Notes under the pieces: generated by a model
What the model was told of the DNA's origin: nothing
The model's database searches: none
What the model saw: only the letters and a program-made list of their open reading frames with translations
Shown: in pieces, positions 5,117 through 47,345 of the stretch
Position numbering within the stretch: position 1 is the stretch's first letter
How the letters are laid out: the number at the start of each line of letters is the position of its first letter
Translations under genes and position numbers: made by a program
Assembly: GCF_053078305.1 (NCBI RefSeq)
Contig: NZ_CP166879.1
Length of the DNA stretch: 64,000 nt
Reading direction: 5' to 3' (one strand)

Positions 5117-5143
5117 GCCCGGCATGACGCCGGGCTTTTTTTA
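5117..5143. terminator. Bidirectional rho-independent terminator between convergent uhpT and ade
   Basis: stem gcccggc / gccgggc (5117-5135) followed by T7 run (5136-5142); A-rich on the other side. Confidence 0.7.
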
Positions 5144-38354: not shown

Positions 38355-38368
38355 TCTATTGAAGAATG

Positions 38369-38399
38369 CCGGATACGAATGGTTTCGTGTCGTATCCGG
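38369..38399 (+). terminator. Stem-loop downstream of yicI (possible terminator)
   Basis: 10-bp perfect inverted repeat ccggatacga / tcgtatccgg with 11-nt loop; no strong T tract. Confidence 0.35.
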
Positions 38400-38648
38400 T
38401 AAATAATCTCACATCTGGTAATAAATATTTCTTCCATCGTATTTGCGAGCATGATCACGATTATTCATCGCGAAAATGTGATCTGTGCTGAAAAATATCC
38501 CTTAACCGCCTTGCTTTGTTTTATCACTGTCCGGATTACGGACAGATTTTAGTATTGTTGTGAAATTATTCTGCTTTATATTTACCCTCAGAGATGGCAA
38601 CTGAAGCTCTTCCTCATGGGGCTTCTTAATCTGTGATAAGGGTAAAAA

Positions 38649-40202
38649 ATGCAAATGATTACCTCGCGACAAAACAGATTATTACGATTCCTTTTACCTC
38701 GAAGGGAATATACGACTATTGTTAAGATTGCCGGCTATTTAAATGTTTCGGAAAAAACCATTCAACGTGATTTACGTTTACTTGAGCAATGGCTGGGGCA
38801 ATGGAGAATAAATGTTGAGAAGCGTGCTGGCGCGGGTGTGATGTTAAGCGCGGAGAATATTGCTGATTTGCTGCATCTTGATCATTTGTTGGGAGCAGAA
38901 TGTGAAGAGATTGATGGTGTAATGAATAATGCCAGGCGCGTTAAAATAGCGTCGCAGTTATTAAGTGAAACACCGAATGAAACGTCGATCAGTAAATTGT
39001 CAGAACGCTACTTTATCAGCGGAGCCTCTATTGTTAATGACCTGAGAGTAATTGAGTCCTGGCTTGCGCCGTTGGGGTTATCGTTGATCCGCAGCCCAAG
39101 TGGTACGCATATTGAAGGTAGTGAAGGGCAAGTCCGACAGGCAATGGCATTACTGATTAACAGCATTATTAACCATAATGAGCCGCAAGGTGTCGTGTAT
39201 TCACGTCTGGATCCCGGAAGTTATAAAGCATTAGTCCATTATTTTGGAGAAGAAGAGGTGTTATTTGTCCAGTCATTGTTACTGGATATGGAAAATGAAT
39301 TAAGTTGGTCTTTGGGAGAACCTTATTACGTTAACATTTTTACTCACATCCTTATTATGATGTATCGCAACACGCACGGGAATGCGTTATCAAGAGAAGA
39401 AGATCAAACCAGGCAATATGATGAAAATATCTTTAATGTTGCCAGTCAGATGATTCATAAGATAGAACAACGAATTGCACATACATTGCCCGATGATGAA
39501 GTCTGGTTTATTTATCAATATATCATTTCATCAGGTGTGGCGATTGATGGACAAAAAGATGTTAGCATTATTTCACATATGCAGGCCAGCAATGAAGCGC
39601 GTCTTATTACCTGGCGTTTAATTACGGTATTCAGTGACATCGTGGACTGCGATTTTAGTGAAGACAGCGCATTATATGATGGCTTATTGGTGCATATTAA
39701 ACCGCTGATTAACCGACTAAATTATCGTATTCATATCCGTAATCCATTGCTGGAAGATATTAAAGCAGAATTAGCGGATGTCTGGCGGTTGACGCAATAT
39801 GTGGTGAATCAGGTATTTAAAACCTGGGGTGAGAATGCAGTGAGCGAGGATGAAGTGGGTTACCTGACCGTTCATTTTCAGGCTGCGATGGAGCGGCAAA
39901 TTGCCCGTAAACGTGTATTACTGGTCTGTTCAACCGGAATCGGAACTTCGCATCTACTGAAAAGCCGTATTCTGCGAGCATTTCCTGAATGGACGATTGT
40001 TGATGTTATTTCAGCAGCGAATTTATCACAGGTTTTGCCTGACAATATCGAACTGATTATTTCGACCATTAATTTGCCTACAGTCACTATGCCGGTCGCT
40101 TATGTTACCGCTTTTTTTAATGATGCCGATATTAAGCGGGTCACTGAAATGGTGATTACGGAAAAATTACATCATGCGACGTCTCGGGTCGTTGAAATTT
40201 AA
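38649..40202 (+). CDS. PRD-domain transcriptional regulator (BglG/MtlR/LicR family) with N-terminal HTH and PTS EIIB-like domain
   Basis: 517-aa ORF; N-terminal HTH (TIVKIAGYLNVSEKTIQRDLRLLEQ); EIIB(Gat)-like Cys motif (VLLVCSTGIGTSHLLKS); lies upstream of the PTS genes. Confidence 0.75.
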   Translation: MQMITSRQNRLLRFLLPRREYTTIVKIAGYLNVSEKTIQRDLRLLEQWLGQWRINVEKRAGAGVMLSAENIADLLHLDHLLGAECEEIDGVMNNARRVKIASQLLSETPNETSISKLSERYFISGASIVNDLRVIESWLAPLGLSLIRSPSGTHIEGSEGQVRQAMALLINSIINHNEPQGVVYSRLDPGSYKALVHYFGEEEVLFVQSLLLDMENELSWSLGEPYYVNIFTHILIMMYRNTHGNALSREEDQTRQYDENIFNVASQMIHKIEQRIAHTLPDDEVWFIYQYIISSGVAIDGQKDVSIISHMQASNEARLITWRLITVFSDIVDCDFSEDSALYDGLLVHIKPLINRLNYRIHIRNPLLEDIKAELADVWRLTQYVVNQVFKTWGENAVSEDEVGYLTVHFQAAMERQIARKRVLLVCSTGIGTSHLLKSRILRAFPEWTIVDVISAANLSQVLPDNIELIISTINLPTVTMPVAYVTAFFNDADIKRVTEMVITEKLHHATSRVVEI

Positions 40203-40228
40203 TGTCAGAATTTTATGAGGTATGACGA

Positions 40229-40699
40229 ATGGACATAACAAAAATCCTGAATACGAATCGCGTTATTTTAGATATGCAAGCGACGAATAAAGCGGAGGCG
40301 ATTGAAGAATTAACTAATCTTCTCAAAAAAGATGGTGCGATCGATTGTCGGGAAACCTTTATTAAAGATGTCTGGCAGCGCGAAGCGGAAGGCTCGACTG
40401 GTTTTGAAAATCATATTGCGATCCCGCATGGTAAATCTTCTGCGGTAATTAATACTACGCTGGCAATTGGCCGTACCCGCCAGGATATTCCCTGGGAAAC
40501 GCTGGATGGTAGTAGCGTGCGCTGTATTATTTTATTTGCGGTACGTCTTGAAGATCAAAATACCACCCATATCCGTTTACTTTCCCAGGTCGCGGGCGCG
40601 CTGGCGGATGATGACATCATAGAACAATTGTTAGTTGAGACGAGTCCGCAAAAAATCATTGATCTCTTTAGTCAGTATGCACAATCCGATGTCTGCTAA
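40229..40699 (+). CDS. PTS EIIA component (fructose/mannitol-type, EIIA-2 family)
   Basis: 156-aa ORF with phosphorylation-site His motif FENHIAIPHGKS. Confidence 0.8.
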   Translation: MDITKILNTNRVILDMQATNKAEAIEELTNLLKKDGAIDCRETFIKDVWQREAEGSTGFENHIAIPHGKSSAVINTTLAIGRTRQDIPWETLDGSSVRCIILFAVRLEDQNTTHIRLLSQVAGALADDDIIEQLLVETSPQKIIDLFSQYAQSDVC

Positions 40700-40716
40700 A
40701 TAACAGGGAGTATGTC

Positions 40717-41031
40717 ATGAATATTGTCTGTGTTGCCGCCTGTACGGCGGGTATTGCTCATACCTATATTGCTCGTGAAAAGTTAATCAAAGGAGCAAAA
40801 GCTCTGGGCCATACCATTAAAGTTGAAACCCAGGGAACCATTGGTACAGAAAATGAATTACAGGCGGCAGATATCTCTGCTGCTGACGTCGTGATTCTTG
40901 CTGTAGATGTGAAAATAAAAGGAGAAGAACGCTTCACCAATAAACGTATTGTGCGAGTAAAGACAGAGATCGTCATTAAATCGCCCGTTCAATTTCTTGA
41001 AAAGGTCGAAAAATCACTGGGAAACAAATGA
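40717..41031 (+). CDS. PTS EIIB component (fructose-like IIB)
   Basis: 104-aa ORF with active-site Cys near N-terminus (MNIVCVAACTAGIAHTYIA). Confidence 0.8.
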   Translation: MNIVCVAACTAGIAHTYIAREKLIKGAKALGHTIKVETQGTIGTENELQAADISAADVVILAVDVKIKGEERFTNKRIVRVKTEIVIKSPVQFLEKVEKSLGNK

Positions 41032-41055
41032 TCCTTATACTGGAGGGATCTTAAT

Positions 41056-42147
41056 ATGAAAGACAATAAAATTCCGGTTTCACAGGAAATTAAAAAACAT
41101 TTATTAACCGGCATCTCGTGGATGATACCCCTTATTGTGGCCGCCGGGATATGTATTGCGTTGGGGCAAGTTCTTGGCGGTACAGATGTTGGTGAAAAAA
41201 CAGGAACAATCCCGTGGATGCTTAATCAGATTGGCGGCTGGGGAATGGGGCTGATTGTGCCGCTGATTAGCGCGGCAATTGCCTATTCTATTGCCGATCG
41301 TCCCGGATTTGCCCCGGGTCTGATTGTCGGCTTTCTCTGTGGGCAAATCCATACCGGATTTATTGGCGGTATGTTGGGTGGTTTCCTGGTGGGCTACACC
41401 ATTTTGCTACTTAAACGCTATATCCGCCTGCCGCAGTCGATGCAAGGACTCATGCCAATCATGGTGTTGCCGGTATTAAGCACCATTATCGGTGGGCTGT
41501 TAATGATGACGCTGATTGGTAAACCCATCGCCTGGTTACAAGAAGCACTGATTCATTTGCTCGAGTCGATGCAGGGCGGATCGCGCTTCCTGATGGGGGC
41601 CATACTTGGCGCGATGGCAACCTTCGATTTCGGTGGTCCGGTCAACAAAACCATGTCGCTGTTTTCCGATGGCTTGCTGGTCAGTGGCGTCTACGGACCA
41701 GAAGCCGTGAAATTTGTCGGCTCAATCATCCCTCCGTTTGGCATCACACTTTCGTTCTTACTGACACGCCATAAATACACCCGTGCGGAGCGCGAGGCGC
41801 TGAAAGCCGCGTTTCCGATGGGGATCTGCATGATCACTGAAGGAGTCATTCCGATCGCCGCGCGTGACCTGCTGCGAGTAGTGGGATCTTGTGTGGTGGC
41901 ATCGGCGGTCGCGGGCGGCTTAATCATGGTGTGGGGCGTGGAGAGTCCGGTTCCGCATGGCGGCATGTTTGTTGTGCCTCTGTTCACCCATCCTCTGCTG
42001 TTTTGCCTGGCGCTGGGTATAGGCACGGTGATTTGTGGCGTGATGCTTTCACTCTGGAAGAAACCGGTAACGGAACGCGACGAAGAGTTTGACGAACTGA
42101 GCGATCAAAAGCTGAAAGATGAAGAGATCACTTTCACCCTCGAATAA
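41056..42147 (+). CDS. PTS EIIC permease (fructose-like IIC)
   Basis: 363-aa polytopic membrane ORF immediately after EIIB. Confidence 0.8.
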   Translation: MKDNKIPVSQEIKKHLLTGISWMIPLIVAAGICIALGQVLGGTDVGEKTGTIPWMLNQIGGWGMGLIVPLISAAIAYSIADRPGFAPGLIVGFLCGQIHTGFIGGMLGGFLVGYTILLLKRYIRLPQSMQGLMPIMVLPVLSTIIGGLLMMTLIGKPIAWLQEALIHLLESMQGGSRFLMGAILGAMATFDFGGPVNKTMSLFSDGLLVSGVYGPEAVKFVGSIIPPFGITLSFLLTRHKYTRAEREALKAAFPMGICMITEGVIPIAARDLLRVVGSCVVASAVAGGLIMVWGVESPVPHGGMFVVPLFTHPLLFCLALGIGTVICGVMLSLWKKPVTERDEEFDELSDQKLKDEEITFTLE

Positions 42148-42158
42148 CCGGAGGCCCT

Positions 42159-43010
42159 ATGTTTGCCGATATGAAAAGTATGGTGATGAAAGCCTGGCAT
42201 GAACATTACGCCTTGCTGGCGATCAACTGTATGAATCTGGAAAGTGCTTACGCAGCTATCCGCGTGGCGGAGAAGAATCGCGCTCCGATCATTCTCAATC
42301 TCTATCAGGGGCATCTGGCACATTTTCCTGCACCCGTCGCGGCGGCAGTGGTTAAAACGCTCGCGGAATCTGCCTCAGTACCGGTCACTCTGGCGCTTGA
42401 TCATGGCAAAAATCCGGACTGTATTCGTCAGGCGTTTCGTGCTGGTTTCAGCGGATTAATGATTGATGCTTCTGCTTTTCCCCTGGAGGAAAACGTGCGC
42501 CAGACCAGGGCGGTGGTGGAACTCGCCGCCAGCGCGCAGCTCTGCGTGGAAGGCGAACTGGGCCATCTGGCAGATGCGCCGCGTTACGACCAGGCCGCCA
42601 ATGCAGACATGATGACGCAACCCACTGATGTGGAACCGTTTATCGCGCAGACAGGCATTGATCTACTGGCTGTCTCTGTGGGTACGGCGCACGGCATGTA
42701 CGCGCCTGGTGTTGTACCTGCTATTGATTTTCAGCGTCTGGCGGAGATTTTCCACTGCTCGAGCGTGCCTCTGGCATTACATGGCGGTAGCGGTACGCCG
42801 TTCGATCAGCTCCAGCTCTGTACGACGCTGGGGGTAGCAAAAATCAACGTGGGGGCGGCCATTTTTGAACGGGGGAAATCCGCGCTCCTGCATACCCTCT
42901 GTCACGATATATCCATTGAACTGGTGGACGCGCTGAAAGCTATGGAACTGGCCTTCGAAGAAGCGATTACACCGTATTTACAGGCGAGCGGCTCTATCGG
43001 CAAAGCCTGA
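42159..43010 (+). CDS. Class II ketose-bisphosphate aldolase family protein (GatY/KbaY/FbaA-like), variant N-terminal motif
   Basis: 283-aa ORF with LALDHG, VSVGTAHG and LALHGGSG motifs (Zn-ligand His positions); canonical GAFNV substrate motif replaced by LAINCMNLE. Confidence 0.7.
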   Translation: MFADMKSMVMKAWHEHYALLAINCMNLESAYAAIRVAEKNRAPIILNLYQGHLAHFPAPVAAAVVKTLAESASVPVTLALDHGKNPDCIRQAFRAGFSGLMIDASAFPLEENVRQTRAVVELAASAQLCVEGELGHLADAPRYDQAANADMMTQPTDVEPFIAQTGIDLLAVSVGTAHGMYAPGVVPAIDFQRLAEIFHCSSVPLALHGGSGTPFDQLQLCTTLGVAKINVGAAIFERGKSALLHTLCHDISIELVDALKAMELAFEEAITPYLQASGSIGKA

Positions 43011-43090
43011 TTCATTTTCTGTCATGGCCTTTATGCCAGTGCAATAACGCACCGGCAGGGCGGACTACACGCTGAAACTGGAGATTTAAC

Positions 43091-43951
43091 ATGTTAGTTT
43101 CGATGAAAGAATTACTGCAACCTACCCGCCAGCACGGCTTTGCCATTGGCGCATTTAATGTGGCGGATAACTGTTTCCTTCGCGCAGTCGTGGATGAAGC
43201 AGAAGCGACAAATACTCCGGCGATTATTGCCATCCATCCCAGCGAACATGATTTTGTGGGCGATGCCTTTTTCGCTCACGTTCGCGAAATTACCCAGCGT
43301 AGTCCAGTCCCGTTTGTACTGCACCTCGATCATGGTGCCTCTGTAGAGCATGTTTTGCGTGCGATTCGCTGCGGATTTACCTCAGTAATGATCGACGGTT
43401 CGCTGCTGCCGTATGAAGAAAACGTGGCGCTGACCGCAGAAGTGGTTCGCCTCGCTCACGCGGTTGGCGTGTCGGTTGAGGGTGAACTGGGAACCATCGG
43501 ACAAACAGGAACGTCGGTAGAAGGTGGTGTTTCACAAGTGACCTACACAGATCCGGCGCAGGCCGCCGATTTTATTGCTCGTACAGGTGCCGACACACTG
43601 GCTGTGGCGATTGGTACAGCGCATGGCATCTATCCAAAAGGGATGCAACCGAAGCTGCAAATGAACATTTTGCGCGACATTGCCGGACGTATTGATATTC
43701 CGCTGGTACTACACGGTGGTTCGGCAAACCCGGACGCGGAGATTGCTGAATCAGTTACGCTCGGCGTCGGCAAAATCAATATCTCCAGCGATATGAAATA
43801 CGCCTATTTCCAGAAAGTGCGTGAAATTCTCGCTAAAGAGAGCTGGTGGGACCCGAACGTCATCTATCCGGATGCGATTAACGCGGCGCGGGAAGTCATT
43901 CGCCACAAAATGAAACTGTTCGGTTCGCTCGGTAAAGCATCACTGTACTAA
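43091..43951 (+). CDS. Class II ketose-bisphosphate aldolase (tagatose/fructose-bisphosphate aldolase family)
   Basis: 286-aa ORF with canonical GAFNV, LHLDHG, VAIGTAHG and LVLHGGS motifs. Confidence 0.75.
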   Translation: MLVSMKELLQPTRQHGFAIGAFNVADNCFLRAVVDEAEATNTPAIIAIHPSEHDFVGDAFFAHVREITQRSPVPFVLHLDHGASVEHVLRAIRCGFTSVMIDGSLLPYEENVALTAEVVRLAHAVGVSVEGELGTIGQTGTSVEGGVSQVTYTDPAQAADFIARTGADTLAVAIGTAHGIYPKGMQPKLQMNILRDIAGRIDIPLVLHGGSANPDAEIAESVTLGVGKINISSDMKYAYFQKVREILAKESWWDPNVIYPDAINAAREVIRHKMKLFGSLGKASLY

Positions 43952-43959
43952 GCCAGAAG

Positions 43960-43980
43960 GGCGGGGTGACCCGCCTTTTA
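43960..43980 (+). terminator. Short GC stem-loop plus T4 between aldolase and kinase genes (possible intra-operon attenuator)
   Basis: ggcggg-gtga-cccgcc followed by tttta. Confidence 0.35.
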
Positions 43981-43998
43981 CGCAACAAGGAACGAGAT

Positions 43999-44931
43999 AT
44001 GCACTATCTGGGGTTGGATATTGGTGGGACCAAAATCGCCGCCGTCGTCATGGATGCGCATGGCTGGGAGATTCGCCGTTACCGCTGCCCGACGCAAAAG
44101 TCGACATATCAACAATTTGTCTCATGCGTTGTGGCACTTATCGAGCAGATTAGGCGGGACGTTCAACGACCGATGCTGACAGGGATCGCCTTACCCGGCA
44201 GTATCTCGCCACTCACTGGCCTGATTAAAAACGCGAATATTCAGGTGATTAACGGTCATGCGTTACAGGCTGATTTGCAGCAATTGCTTGGGCAACCGGT
44301 GGTGATAGCCAATGATGGTAACTGTTTCGCGCTATCAGAAGCTTGCGACGGTGCCGGGCAAGATTATGACGTGGTATTTGGTATTACGCTTGGTACGGGC
44401 TGCGGCGGTGGCATTGCCATCAAGCAACGACCGTTTATAGGGGCCTGGGGAAATGCTGCCGAATGCGGTCATATCACGTTGCCAGGCTATACGGAGCAGG
44501 AAGATGGTCCATCAGTCAGTTGCTATTGCGGCAAACACAACTGCGTGGAGTCGTTTGTTTCCGGCAGCGGTTTTAGTGAACGCTATCAACAGATGACTGG
44601 TAACTTGCTCACTCCTGCGGCGATTGTCACCCTGGCACAACGTGGTGATGCTTGTGCCATGCAGCAGGTGGCACGTTTTCGCCAACAGCTTGCCCGCACG
44701 CTCGCAACCATCGTTAATGTTGTTGACCCTGGCGTGATTGTGATCGGCGGCGGGCTTTCGAATGTGGAACTGCTTATCACCGATCTGAACGCAGAAGTCG
44801 CTCCACTGGTTTTCACCGATCAATTCACCACTCCCATTGTAAAAGCACAGCACGGCGACAGTAGCGGAATGCGTGGCGCTGCCTGGCTTGCTATGCGCAA
44901 CGGAGAAGCCAATGAAACGTTCACAAATTAA
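43999..44931 (+). CDS. ROK-family sugar kinase
   Basis: ORF 43966..44931; likely start MHYLGLDIGGTKIAAV (ATG 43999, RBS aaggaacgag); ROK glycine-rich ATP motif and Cys-rich zinc motif (CYCGKHNC). Confidence 0.75.
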   Translation: MHYLGLDIGGTKIAAVVMDAHGWEIRRYRCPTQKSTYQQFVSCVVALIEQIRRDVQRPMLTGIALPGSISPLTGLIKNANIQVINGHALQADLQQLLGQPVVIANDGNCFALSEACDGAGQDYDVVFGITLGTGCGGGIAIKQRPFIGAWGNAAECGHITLPGYTEQEDGPSVSCYCGKHNCVESFVSGSGFSERYQQMTGNLLTPAAIVTLAQRGDACAMQQVARFRQQLARTLATIVNVVDPGVIVIGGGLSNVELLITDLNAEVAPLVFTDQFTTPIVKAQHGDSSGMRGAAWLAMRNGEANETFTN

Positions 44932-45592
44932 TTATGTTATTGATAAAGCACATGCCATTGCGCAGACCTTCCGCGTTTGTTTGCCAGAGTTCGCCTATTT
45001 TACGGTGGATGACTGGCTGCAGCGGGAACGGGATAACTGGCAAGAAGTGGTCGACTTACAGCTCGGTTGGGATATCACCGATTTTGGTCGTGGTGATTTC
45101 AACCAAACGGGACTAACACTGCTAACGATGCGCAACGGCGCGCTGGGGTCGGCGGCATATCCAAAACCGTATGCTGAGAAAATGTTGCAGATCCAACAAG
45201 ATCAGCAGACTCCCTGGCATTTTCACACCCACAAAATGGAAGATATCCTCAATCGGGGCGGTGGAGACTTATGCATGCAGTTGGCCTGGGCCAACGAAGC
45301 CAGTCTCTGTGATGATCAACGAGTCATTACCGTGAGTGTTGATGGTCAGCGGCGTACCATGAAACCTGGTGAAACGCTGGTGTTAAAGCCGGGGCAGGGC
45401 ATTTGCCTGCCGCCGCGTCTGTATCATCGCTTCTGGGCGGAAAAAGCGTTTGTTCTCGGCTGGGAAATTTCGATGGTAAATGATGACCAACACGATAACT
45501 ATTTTCTTGAGCCGGGAGGACGTTTTCCTGCGATAGAAGAAGATGAACCGGTGAAATGGTTATTGTGCAGTGAGTATGGAATTTTGCGCTAA
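44912..45592 (+). CDS. Cupin-fold sugar isomerase, D-lyxose/D-mannose isomerase-like (YdaE family)
   Basis: ORF 44873..45592; probable start MKRSQINYV (44912) overlapping the kinase 3' end by 20 nt; metal-binding His cluster WHFHTHK. Confidence 0.6.
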   Translation: MKRSQINYVIDKAHAIAQTFRVCLPEFAYFTVDDWLQRERDNWQEVVDLQLGWDITDFGRGDFNQTGLTLLTMRNGALGSAAYPKPYAEKMLQIQQDQQTPWHFHTHKMEDILNRGGGDLCMQLAWANEASLCDDQRVITVSVDGQRRTMKPGETLVLKPGQGICLPPRLYHRFWAEKAFVLGWEISMVNDDQHDNYFLEPGGRFPAIEEDEPVKWLLCSEYGILR

Positions 45593-45601
45593 TAACGGGG
45601 A

Positions 45602-45637
45602 ACGCTAGCGCTGATATCCGCTAGCGTCCTTATTTTT
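45602..45637. terminator. Hairpin terminator at the junction of the sugar island and convergent yicH
   Basis: acgctagcg-ctgatatc-cgctagcgt followed by ccttattttt. Confidence 0.55.
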
Positions 45638-47345
45638 ACTGCGCCGGCTCCGTCGACGTAACTTCACCACTGGAAACTACGCCCGCATTCATGGTTTGAG
45701 TCACTTGCTGCTTTGCGGCGTTCACGGCATGCAATTGCCCGCTAACCGTAGGTTTCAGCGGGACATTGGCCTGAATATCGCCACTGGCGGTAAGCTGAAT
45801 ATTGCCGTCGCCAGTCAACGGTAATTCAGGCCATCCCCAATGTTGCAAAATATTCACCGGCACACCGCGTCCATTCAGGCTGATATGGGTCTGACGTTGT
45901 GGCGTTTGTGAAACACTGGCGGTGGCTTCCAGAATGCCTTTTTCAGTAAATGCACTCAGTTCGCTGATATTCACCGTGCTGCTGTTGGCGGTTAGCGCCA
46001 GCGATGGACGACGGACATCAACACGATTAAACGTCGCGGCGGCGGCATTCAGATTCGCCGAACCACTCCAGACGCCCCATTTATGATCGGTGACCAGCGT
46101 CAGGTTGGCACCGTAACCATCGAGCGCGGTGAGCTGCCACGGGAAGTCAGGGTCGATATCAATGATCAGATTGCGGCTGGCGCTAAATCTCTTCAGTTGC
46201 AGGCTGTTTAACCAACCCGGTGTCGTTTCCATCCACAACTGTTGCCAGTTTTTCGGCAAGGTATATTCCAGCCCGGCAATTGCCGCATCATCAAGGAGTA
46301 ACGTTTTCCCGTCACGCAGCCAGTTCCCTGACGTTCTGACCATACCCCCTTCCCAGCGGCTGGTGAACTGGCGCAGCGCTACGCCCTGCGGGGAAAATTC
46401 CGCGTTTATAATCGGGTCAAATAAATGCAGCGAACCATAAATGAACTCGCTAGCGTTCATCGACAGTTTGCCTTCTTGTGTCTGCCAGTCATCTTTACTG
46501 AAGGTCATGTTGCGCAAGCTGAGATCGAGGTCGGTCACCGCCCAGTCCGGACCTTGCAGACGAGCATCGATCACTTCCAGGCGACCAATCTGCAACGACG
46601 GGACAGAGCGTAATGGTGCAAAGAAGTCGGTTAGCGATTTTTCGCTTTGTAGACGGATATCCGCCATGCGCAGATTTTCCACTTGCCAGCTGCCGTCGGC
46701 GTTACGCTGCGCGTTTCCGGTTAATGTCCCGCGCGCGATGTCGGCACCCAGGTTAGTCAGCGTAACGCGATCGTTATCAATACTGCCTTCAATCAGTACA
46801 TTGGTGGCAGGAACATCATTGAGCGAAAGCGATCCGGCACTAAACTGAATCTGCGCCTTCGTACCCAGCACTTTACCGGCTTCTGGTGACCACGGAACCA
46901 CGCCGCCATTTACCCGCTGCGCGCTCAGTTTCCATTCGCTATTCGGGCTATTAAACGCCATATCACGCAGTTGCAGACGATCGGCTTTGAACGGTAGCGG
47001 CGCGGTCTGGTCGGTGAGATTCAGCGTTCCGTTTTCCAGCAGGATGGTATCGACATGGCGTGGTTCGGTCAGTTGCCGACTACTTAGCGCAATGTCGACA
47101 CTTTTGGCCACCAGGGTCGCGGGCTGGCCATCACGACCAAACGTGACGTTCTCCAGCACAATATGAGATGGCGCGGAAAAACGGTGATCCATCGCCCCGA
47201 AGGCCAGATGATAGTCGCTATTCTCGGAAACCCATGCGCTGATATGTTCTGCTCCCCAGCGGGTTTGCAGAAGAAAATAGAGGCCAGCGATCACCACTAA
47301 CAGAGCGATGAGAATGTAGAGAAGCAGCTTCCCAATAAATTTCAT
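45636..47345 (-). CDS. yicH: AsmA-family protein YicH
   Basis: ORF 45636..47369; conserved form begins MKFIGKLLLYILIALLVVIAGLYF (N-terminal TM anchor). Confidence 0.85.
   Translation of the reverse strand: MKFIGKLLLYILIALLVVIAGLYFLLQTRWGAEHISAWVSENSDYHLAFGAMDHRFSAPSHIVLENVTFGRDGQPATLVAKSVDIALSSRQLTEPRHVDTILLENGTLNLTDQTAPLPFKADRLQLRDMAFNSPNSEWKLSAQRVNGGVVPWSPEAGKVLGTKAQIQFSAGSLSLNDVPATNVLIEGSIDNDRVTLTNLGADIARGTLTGNAQRNADGSWQVENLRMADIRLQSEKSLTDFFAPLRSVPSLQIGRLEVIDARLQGPDWAVTDLDLSLRNMTFSKDDWQTQEGKLSMNASEFIYGSLHLFDPIINAEFSPQGVALRQFTSRWEGGMVRTSGNWLRDGKTLLLDDAAIAGLEYTLPKNWQQLWMETTPGWLNSLQLKRFSASRNLIIDIDPDFPWQLTALDGYGANLTLVTDHKWGVWSGSANLNAAAATFNRVDVRRPSLALTANSSTVNISELSAFTEKGILEATASVSQTPQRQTHISLNGRGVPVNILQHWGWPELPLTGDGNIQLTASGDIQANVPLKPTVSGQLHAVNAAKQQVTQTMNAGVVSSGEVTSTEPAQ

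Follow-up and report, generated by a model that had tools for sequence, protein, structure and literature searches.

What does a GC-rich stem-loop do between the aldolase genes and the kinase gene of a bacterial sugar operon? The question is raised by a 64,000-nucleotide stretch of DNA (NCBI RefSeq assembly GCF_053078305.1, contig NZ_CP166879.1; the whole stretch is called the window here). The original prediction read its stem-loop as terminator-like and as a sign of sub-operon control, with transport and cleavage expressed differently from the kinase and isomerase functions. The window is part of an Escherichia coli chromosome. Strain D8 has the identical sequence (100%) over positions 38400-45800, a segment carried by 1,601 of 5,426 complete E. 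coli genomes.

The operon at 38649-45592 is the known frz operon of extraintestinal pathogenic E. coli (ExPEC), which it matches in gene set and location. It lies between yicI and yicH in the RefSeq annotation of strain D8 and encodes a Mga-type phosphotransferase system (PTS) activator, fructose-type IIA, IIB, and IIC, two class II ketose-bisphosphate aldolases, a ROK kinase, and a cupin protein. Where it treats this locus, PMC12928451 names the gene set between yicI and yicH frz, an ExPEC operon, after Rouquet et al. 2009. A literature search for frz expression returned genome-comparison papers only, and a paper on tagatose evolution (PMC10101011) was unrelated. A distant blastn search found no paralogous aldolase-kinase-isomerase region in E. 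coli. The operon and its genes are as follows (positions in the window).

38649..45592, plus strand: frz operon (open reading frames [ORFs], RefSeq annotation of strain D8, Pfam/NCBIfam domains)
38649-40202, plus strand: PRD/HTH regulator
40229-40699, plus strand: PTS IIA
40717-41031, plus strand: PTS IIB
41056-42147, plus strand: PTS IIC
42159-43010, plus strand: aldolase-1 (class II)
43091..43951, plus strand: aldolase-2 coding sequence (CDS), a ketose-bisphosphate aldolase with the hairpin at its 3' end (ORF, RefSeq, Pfam/NCBIfam; stop TAA 43949-43951)
43999..44931, plus strand: ROK-family sugar kinase CDS (ORF, RefSeq, Pfam/NCBIfam; ATG 43999, stop TAA 44929-44931)
44912..45592, plus strand: D-lyxose/D-mannose-family cupin isomerase CDS (RefSeq, Pfam, NCBIfam)

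The two aldolases differ in their profile matches. Aldolase-2 passes NF006042, and aldolase-1 is under every NCBIfam cutoff (best, 209 bits; cutoff, 343). By analogy with GatZ/KbaZ-type pairs, which provide a precedent for such a subunit, aldolase-1 may be a divergent or non-catalytic partner. For the kinase, the nearest NCBIfam model is fructokinase, with a score under that model's cutoff.

Between the second aldolase gene and the kinase gene, the GC stem-loop and its T4 run were found where they had been placed.

43952..43998, plus strand: aldolase-2/kinase spacer, 47 nt (sequence; geometry conserved)
43956..43979, plus strand: extended 10-bp stem-loop GAAGGGCGGG-GUGA-CCCGCCUUUU (dG, −17.0 kcal/mol; RNAalifold consensus, 9 bp)
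43960..43975, plus strand: GC core GGCGGG/tetraloop/CCCGCC (arms, 43960-43965 and 43970-43975; loop GUGA, 43966-43969)
43976..43979, plus strand: T4 run (U-tract candidate), then ACGC (sequence)
43987..43992, plus strand: kinase Shine-Dalgarno AAGGAA, 6 nt before ATG 43999

As RNA, 43956-43979 reads GAAG GGCGGG GUGA CCCGCC UUUU, in which the four U can pair with GAAG to extend the stem to 10 bp; the core-only fold has a dG of −12.6 kcal/mol and the 10-bp form one of −17.0 kcal/mol. The hairpin starts 4 nt past the aldolase-2 stop and ends 19 nt ahead of the kinase ATG. It is not a product of chance. A scan of both strands of the 64 kb for TTTT preceded by a perfect stem (≥6 bp, ≥5 GC) found 4 sites (expected, 0.45 ± 0.67 from 100 dinucleotide shuffles), and GGCGGG-N4-CCCGCC occurs once in the window (expected, 0.17). 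The hairpin has a z score of −2.67 in a 71-nt context and ranks among the ~7 most stable 26-nt local folds of the window. Rfam covariance models gave 0 matches at E ≤ 1 across 38300-45700. Identity with a REP/BIME repeat was rejected, as the hairpin is single copy in the window and its sequence is unlike the REP-like palindrome at 38369-38400. That palindrome (GCCGGATACGAATGGTTTCGTGTCGTATCCGG) borders the frz island on its left, directly past the stop codon of yicI.

Orthologs were gathered by a kinase scan of species-representative genomes, look-ups of kinase homologs, and a metagenome scan with the aldolase-2 C-terminus. The genome scan with the kinase protein returned 13 loci, four of them (L002-L005) frz-type; the Chimaeribacter and alpha-proteobacterial matches lay in other contexts. 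Eight genomes (Escherichia sp., two Citrobacter, Buttiauxella, Phytobacter, Raoultella terrigena, R. planticola, and Klebsiella aerogenes) and 41 metagenome contigs without taxonomic labels were assembled in this way, amounting to 20 distinct variants with the window included. Most of the orthologous loci with flanks lie between yicI and yicH, and each frz-type locus that was examined has the hairpin in the corresponding place (20/20 distinct variants).

In a loop-anchored, ungapped alignment of the 20 variants, 10 of the 12 stem positions of the core are invariant, and the other two change only from C to U, which keeps a G.U pair. By comparison, 12 lineages share the same base at only 5.6% of the four-fold degenerate sites of aldolase-2, and its third-position identity to E. 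coli is ~50%; the core hardly varies against this background of saturated synonymous sites. The outer pairs covary (AAG/UUU, GA/UC, GCA/UGC, GGAA/UUCC, and GCGA/UCGC). Paired cells reach 89%, against 43-60% when the partners are slid. Double changes occur in 4 of 10 pairs, and there are 19 double-change cells against 4.8 ± 1.7 in shuffles, counts that overstate significance because the ortholog sequences are phylogenetically related. The same 9-bp helix was predicted independently by RNAalifold.

The strand can be read from the exceptions: of the 13 cells in the inner seven pairs that are not Watson-Crick, 11 hold a G.U on the sense strand, which identifies the folding molecule as the sense RNA. 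Loops vary (GUGA, GCGA, GGAA, GAAA, UUCG, UACG, CUUG, UUUG, and AGUA) and are mostly stable tetraloops (GNRA, UNCG, and CUUG); within E. coli, the loop (AUGA and GCAA) is the one part of the spacer that sets two divergent alleles apart. In 22 of 23 variants, 3-9 nt separate the stop codon from the stem and 18-24 nt separate the stem from the next ATG; the exception has 47 nt on the ATG side. In Buttiauxella the stem register is shifted (GGGGCGGG/CUCGCCCC) and the fold is kept. The hairpin is a selected sense-strand RNA stem-loop, stable, beyond chance, and conserved in both position and structure. What is new is a well-conserved intercistronic hairpin; its kind and the frz operon were already known.

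It is very improbable that such a hairpin has no present function, whether as the decaying relic of a terminator that once ended the operon after aldolase-2 or as a chance palindrome. A relic would suit a downstream kinase/isomerase module that evolves faster (65-83% amino acid identity) than the upstream genes (88-97%) and that is dispensable in some lineages, in which the kinase is absent. An invariant core, a covarying outer stem, and a geometry kept across genera with saturated synonymous sites nevertheless argue for continued selection, as does the restriction of polymorphism within E. coli to loop positions.

The invariance of the core can also be read as that of a sequence-specific site for a trans-acting factor (in RNA, or as a DNA palindrome or operator) whose binding, in place of the hairpin itself, would control the downstream genes. 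Ten of the 12 core bases never change though neutral sites are saturated, no G-C to C-G swaps occur in the core, and a 6-N4-6 palindrome with a free centre has the shape of a dimeric operator. However, departures are G.U on the sense strand only and would read as A.C mismatches if the element acted as a DNA palindrome or as antisense RNA, an asymmetry on which the DNA-operator version was rejected. Outer positions are free to change while pairing is kept, the shifted Buttiauxella register still folds, and no Rfam family corresponds to the site; the deep fitness valley in breaking a G-C pair of a short stem would itself explain the invariance. We consider a factor-binding site unlikely.

Is the stem-loop a terminator? 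Its stem is of the kind found in intrinsic terminators (GC rich, 5-14 bp, short loop), with a 6-bp all-GC core, 10 bp in the extended form, and a tetraloop. Its U-tract falls short. Intrinsic terminators typically carry 6 or more U in 8, and the consensus terminator scan, which needs at least 5 T in 8, omits the site (UUUUACGC, 4/8 T); the tail score is 3.1, against 5.2-5.6 for the canonical terminators of the window. On a d'Aubenton-Carafa-type score (formula of d'Aubenton Carafa 1990, with modern energies, valid for relative ranking only), the E. coli hairpin reaches +15.4, the canonical terminators at 5117 and 61982 reach +54 and +47, and the ortholog hairpins range from −45 to +26 (L036, +26; L038, +18).

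Tails rich in U or pyrimidines follow the stem in 13 of the 20 variants: UUUUAC in E. coli, UCUUUCG in Citrobacter, (UC)UUUCG in Phytobacter and R. terrigena, and UUUUUCG or UUUUUGC in two metagenome groups. No U-tract follows it in the K. aerogenes-like (AAUCGG), R. planticola (UGACUGG), L028-group (UAUGAAU), and Buttiauxella (AGGCAAC) loci, and the stems of the U-less lineages are longer (9-11 bp). Altogether, seven of the 20 variants are without a usable U-tract (scores, −7 to −45) and have kept or lengthened the stem. The stem-loop is conserved and the U-tract is not, a pattern no less compatible with an mRNA-decay barrier than with a terminator. The description of the hairpin as terminator-like therefore stands for the GC stem-loop, its UUUU, and its positive score, and fails for the number of U (four), the scan threshold, and the conservation of the U-run.

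The hairpin might still be primarily a leaky intrinsic terminator or attenuator, at which a fixed or conditional fraction of RNA polymerase stops after aldolase-2, with any stabilization secondary; we regard this as possible, if doubtful. UUUU stands directly after the GC stem in E. coli, the scores of E. coli, L036, and L038 are positive, the tails of 13 variants are rich in U or pyrimidines, and the stable tetraloops are typical of terminators. Termination could be the main function in the lineages with such a tail (about two thirds of the variants, E. coli included). On the other side, there are only four U, short of the 5-of-8 threshold, and in free RNA all four are paired with the upstream GAAG; the E. 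coli score is far under the +47 and +54 of the canonical terminators, and the variants without a usable U-tract keep the stem. Moreover, a scan of the 19 nt between hairpin and kinase found no promoter-like site. Read-through must be substantial, given this result and a kinase and isomerase that are intact in most lineages; conservation of downstream genes without a promoter of their own means that termination is not efficient.

We favor a role for the hairpin at the aldolase-2 3' end in setting the ratio of upstream (regulator, PTS IIABC, and aldolases) to downstream (ROK kinase and cupin isomerase) expression, a proposal whose chances seem to us about even. Because the conserved entity is a stem-loop without its U-tract, the hairpin matches protective 3' structures that block PNPase or RNase II after RNase E cleavage. 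Structures of this type let the 5' portion of a polycistronic mRNA outlast the 3' portion, as in malEFG and puf. In the proposed sequence of events, the whole operon would be transcribed from a promoter upstream of the regulator gene. Endonucleolytic cleavage would fall in the kinase/isomerase part, 3'-to-5' exonucleases would then halt at the 8-11-bp GC stem, and the upstream segment of frz mRNA would outlive the downstream one. In E. coli-type alleles (UUUU or UUUUU after the stem), a minority of transcripts would probably also be ended there, as at a weak intrinsic terminator. Given the size of its footprint, a ribosome terminating at the aldolase-2 stop, 4 nt upstream of the hairpin, would sit over the 5' arm, partly occlude it, and favor read-through while transcription and translation are coupled. 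The kinase would be translated from its own AAGGAA site, and the isomerase would be translationally coupled to the kinase through their overlap.

By either route, decay barrier or weak terminator, expression of the transporter and aldolases is predicted to exceed that of the kinase and isomerase, in line with the differential expression suggested by the original prediction. We infer the effect of the hairpin on mRNA level and its nuclease or termination mechanism. Sub-operon control of some form at the aldolase/kinase junction is plausible, given a genuine structural boundary that selection strongly maintains; the route is probably no classical terminator, and on that count the expectation needs amending. 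One feature weighs against a decay barrier, since a pure exonuclease-barrier model calls for pairing and has no need of an invariant core sequence. The RNase E motif RN/WUU was sought by eye in the spacer and is degenerate, hence uninformative.

Known systems offer parallels on both sides. Intra-operon terminators or attenuators include rpsU-dnaG-rpoD T1 and rplL-rpoB. Like these, frz has a GC hairpin and U-run in a spacer between cotranscribed genes, in a stop-codon-proximal position where ribosomes could modulate folding; unlike them, its U-tract is short (4 U in E. coli) and absent in several orthologs, and its predicted strength is far under canonical. That terminators within operons can set stoichiometry, as between mccA and mccB (PMC4231749), speaks for a leaky terminator. 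With protective 3' stem-loops (the malE-malF REP hairpins, the puf "decay terminator," and the structures of Dar and Sorek 2018), frz shares a stable hairpin at a cistron or operon-segment boundary that is conserved in related enterobacteria, needs no U-tract, and lies 3' of the segment expected in larger amount (transporter/aldolases). Many of the E. coli protective structures of Dar and Sorek are conserved in Salmonella and Enterobacter (PMC5927463). They lie on average ~107 nt into the downstream coding sequence (PMC5927463), whereas the frz hairpin lies inside the spacer itself. The frz hairpin also differs from the malE-malF hairpins in being no REP (single copy, different sequence).

The strongly selected stem-loop stands exactly at the border between PTS and aldolase genes, for phosphorylated sugars, and kinase and isomerase genes, for free sugars, in an operon associated with fitness and virulence of ExPEC. 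Under the favored reading, it would add one example of the common bacterial tuning of gene ratios within operons. The stem-loop is an easily mutated handle for asking whether the two halves of frz are unequally expressed and which half drives the reported phenotypes.

The 5' arm lies 3-9 nt past the aldolase-2 stop in every lineage, so a closely following or terminating ribosome would prevent folding. This allows a further reading, which we think improbable, in which the hairpin is a translation-sensing conditional terminator or a factor-binding switch and the frz modules are regulated separately by physiological state. Uncoupled transcription (under stress, in late stationary phase, or under oxygen limitation, where frz is reported to matter) would then let the hairpin fold and shut off the kinase/isomerase part or change its stability, and the sequence-invariant core might also be read by a specific protein.

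A PTS sugar operon with a PRD regulator and an internal terminator-like hairpin also recalls the bgl/sac-type systems, in which a ribonucleic antiterminator (RAT) overlaps a terminator. By analogy with the internal terminator of bgl, the PRD regulator would bind a RAT and allow read-through when sugar is present; RefSeq names the frz regulator "BglG family transcription antiterminator," and it has two PRD domains. Its Pfam domains, however, are HTH_11, an Mga helix-turn-helix, the two PRDs, and an EIIB-like (PTS_IIB-like) domain, and the CAT RNA-binding domain (CAT_RBD) was not found in it with Pfam. GlcT/LicT matches cover the PRD part only and are far under cutoffs. The position that a RAT would take consists of just the 4-9 nt after the stop codon and is not conserved, and no conserved RAT lies 5' of the stem. 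In contrast to the bgl/sac regulators, that of frz is a DNA-binding, Mga/MtlR-type protein. BglG-type antitermination, hardly credible on these grounds, was rejected on the domain content of the regulator.

Upstream of the regulator gene, the scan lists CTGTCCGGATTACGGACAG and ATTTTAGTATTG (38527-38545 and 38546-38560) as terminator-like. Across 38527-38560, six orthologous loci agree fully only in TGTCC-N8/9-GGACA and ATTTAGTATTGT, and the middle pairing is lost. This element, by a −10-like TAGTAT, looks like a DNA operator with inverted half-sites and not like an RNA hairpin. A further conserved motif, ATCACG...ATGTGATCTG, lies upstream of it.

The kinase and isomerase genes overlap by 20 nt, as had been noted together with the suggestion of translational coupling.

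44902..44905, plus strand: isomerase Shine-Dalgarno GGAG, within the kinase 3' end (sequence)
44912..44931, plus strand: kinase/isomerase overlap, 20 nt (sequence, ORFs, RefSeq/PGAP)

The overlap runs from the isomerase ATG (44912) to the kinase stop (44929-44931), and PGAP annotates both CDSs identically. The start at ATG 44912 is supported by the Pfam Lyx_isomer and NCBIfam LyManIsomGneg profiles, whose alignments begin at residue 1 of its product. By its layout, with the downstream start inside the upstream gene and a Shine-Dalgarno sequence in the upstream ORF, the overlap fits ordinary translational coupling. It resembles other overlapping stop/start arrangements (ATGA-type and longer) in having the isomerase start in the kinase 3' end with its Shine-Dalgarno sequence upstream, and in a junction that is tight across genera; the 20 nt of E. 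coli differ from the commonest coupled overlaps, which are 4 or 1 nt. Overlaps of 20 nt were also found in Citrobacter FP75, Buttiauxella, and the L028 group, overlaps of 4 nt (ATGA) in Phytobacter, Raoultella, and K. aerogenes, and none in Citrobacter On2M. As the length varies among lineages, the particular 20 nt has no special meaning.

The hairpin boundary also divides genes of unequal conservation, higher on the aldolase-2 side and lower for the kinase and isomerase. Amino acid identity to E. coli is 93-97% for IIC, 88-93% for aldolase-2, and ~90% for IIA, and it is 63-79% for the regulator, 77-84% for aldolase-1, 65-78% for the kinase, and 69-83% for the isomerase. The kinase leader CAAYAAGGAA is kept in most orthologous variants. 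Six metagenome loci (L025, L036, L038, L045, L058, and L059; Citrobacter-like by flanking identity) have no ROK kinase gene. In these, the isomerase ATG comes immediately after aldolase-2, the hairpin, and the kinase leader with its Shine-Dalgarno sequence (CGCAACAAGGAA), as if the kinase had been cleanly deleted. On this gene arrangement, the hairpin belongs to aldolase-2, to which it is still attached in operons without a kinase gene.

Kinase homologs of ≤65% identity (K. indica, K. oxytoca, Pantoea, and Affinibrenneria) lie in different clusters and were useless for the junction. The closest non-frz homologs of the kinase (~63-65% identity) are those of Klebsiella indica, Affinibrenneria, K. 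oxytoca, and Pantoea (L019-L022), placed after a GH38 alpha-mannosidase, a PRD regulator, and a porin. An intact phosphomannose isomerase (PMI) follows the homolog in L020; L021 has just a 31-aa weak PMI-like fragment. This setting gives a hint that free mannose or fructose may be the substrate of the frz kinase.

Further elements lie in and around the operon. The spacer between aldolase-1 and aldolase-2 (43011-43090, 80 nt) shows nearly coding-level conservation in 17 distinct variants, with the invariant blocks ATGCC...GGCAGGGC and CTACAC-CTGAAACTGGAGA. RNAalifold gave nested helices without compensatory changes, and in E. coli the fold lacks significance (z = −0.85). On the minus strand, folding is equally good or better (43033-43058, −17.1 kcal/mol). 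The operon ends in a hairpin of its own.

45602..45627, plus strand: operon-end hairpin, between the convergent isomerase and yicH genes (scan, fold; poor U-tail CCTTATTTTT)

The orthologous operon ends, taken as a positive control for terminators, were heterogeneous, with REP elements in Citrobacter-like loci, plain hairpins, and one canonical terminator, found only in L028. At the other side of the region, tRNA-Sec (selC) and an adjacent rhuM pseudogene fragment lie just upstream of yicJI (locus L001, 1618-1952), and the selC site by the frz region is a known hotspot of island integration.
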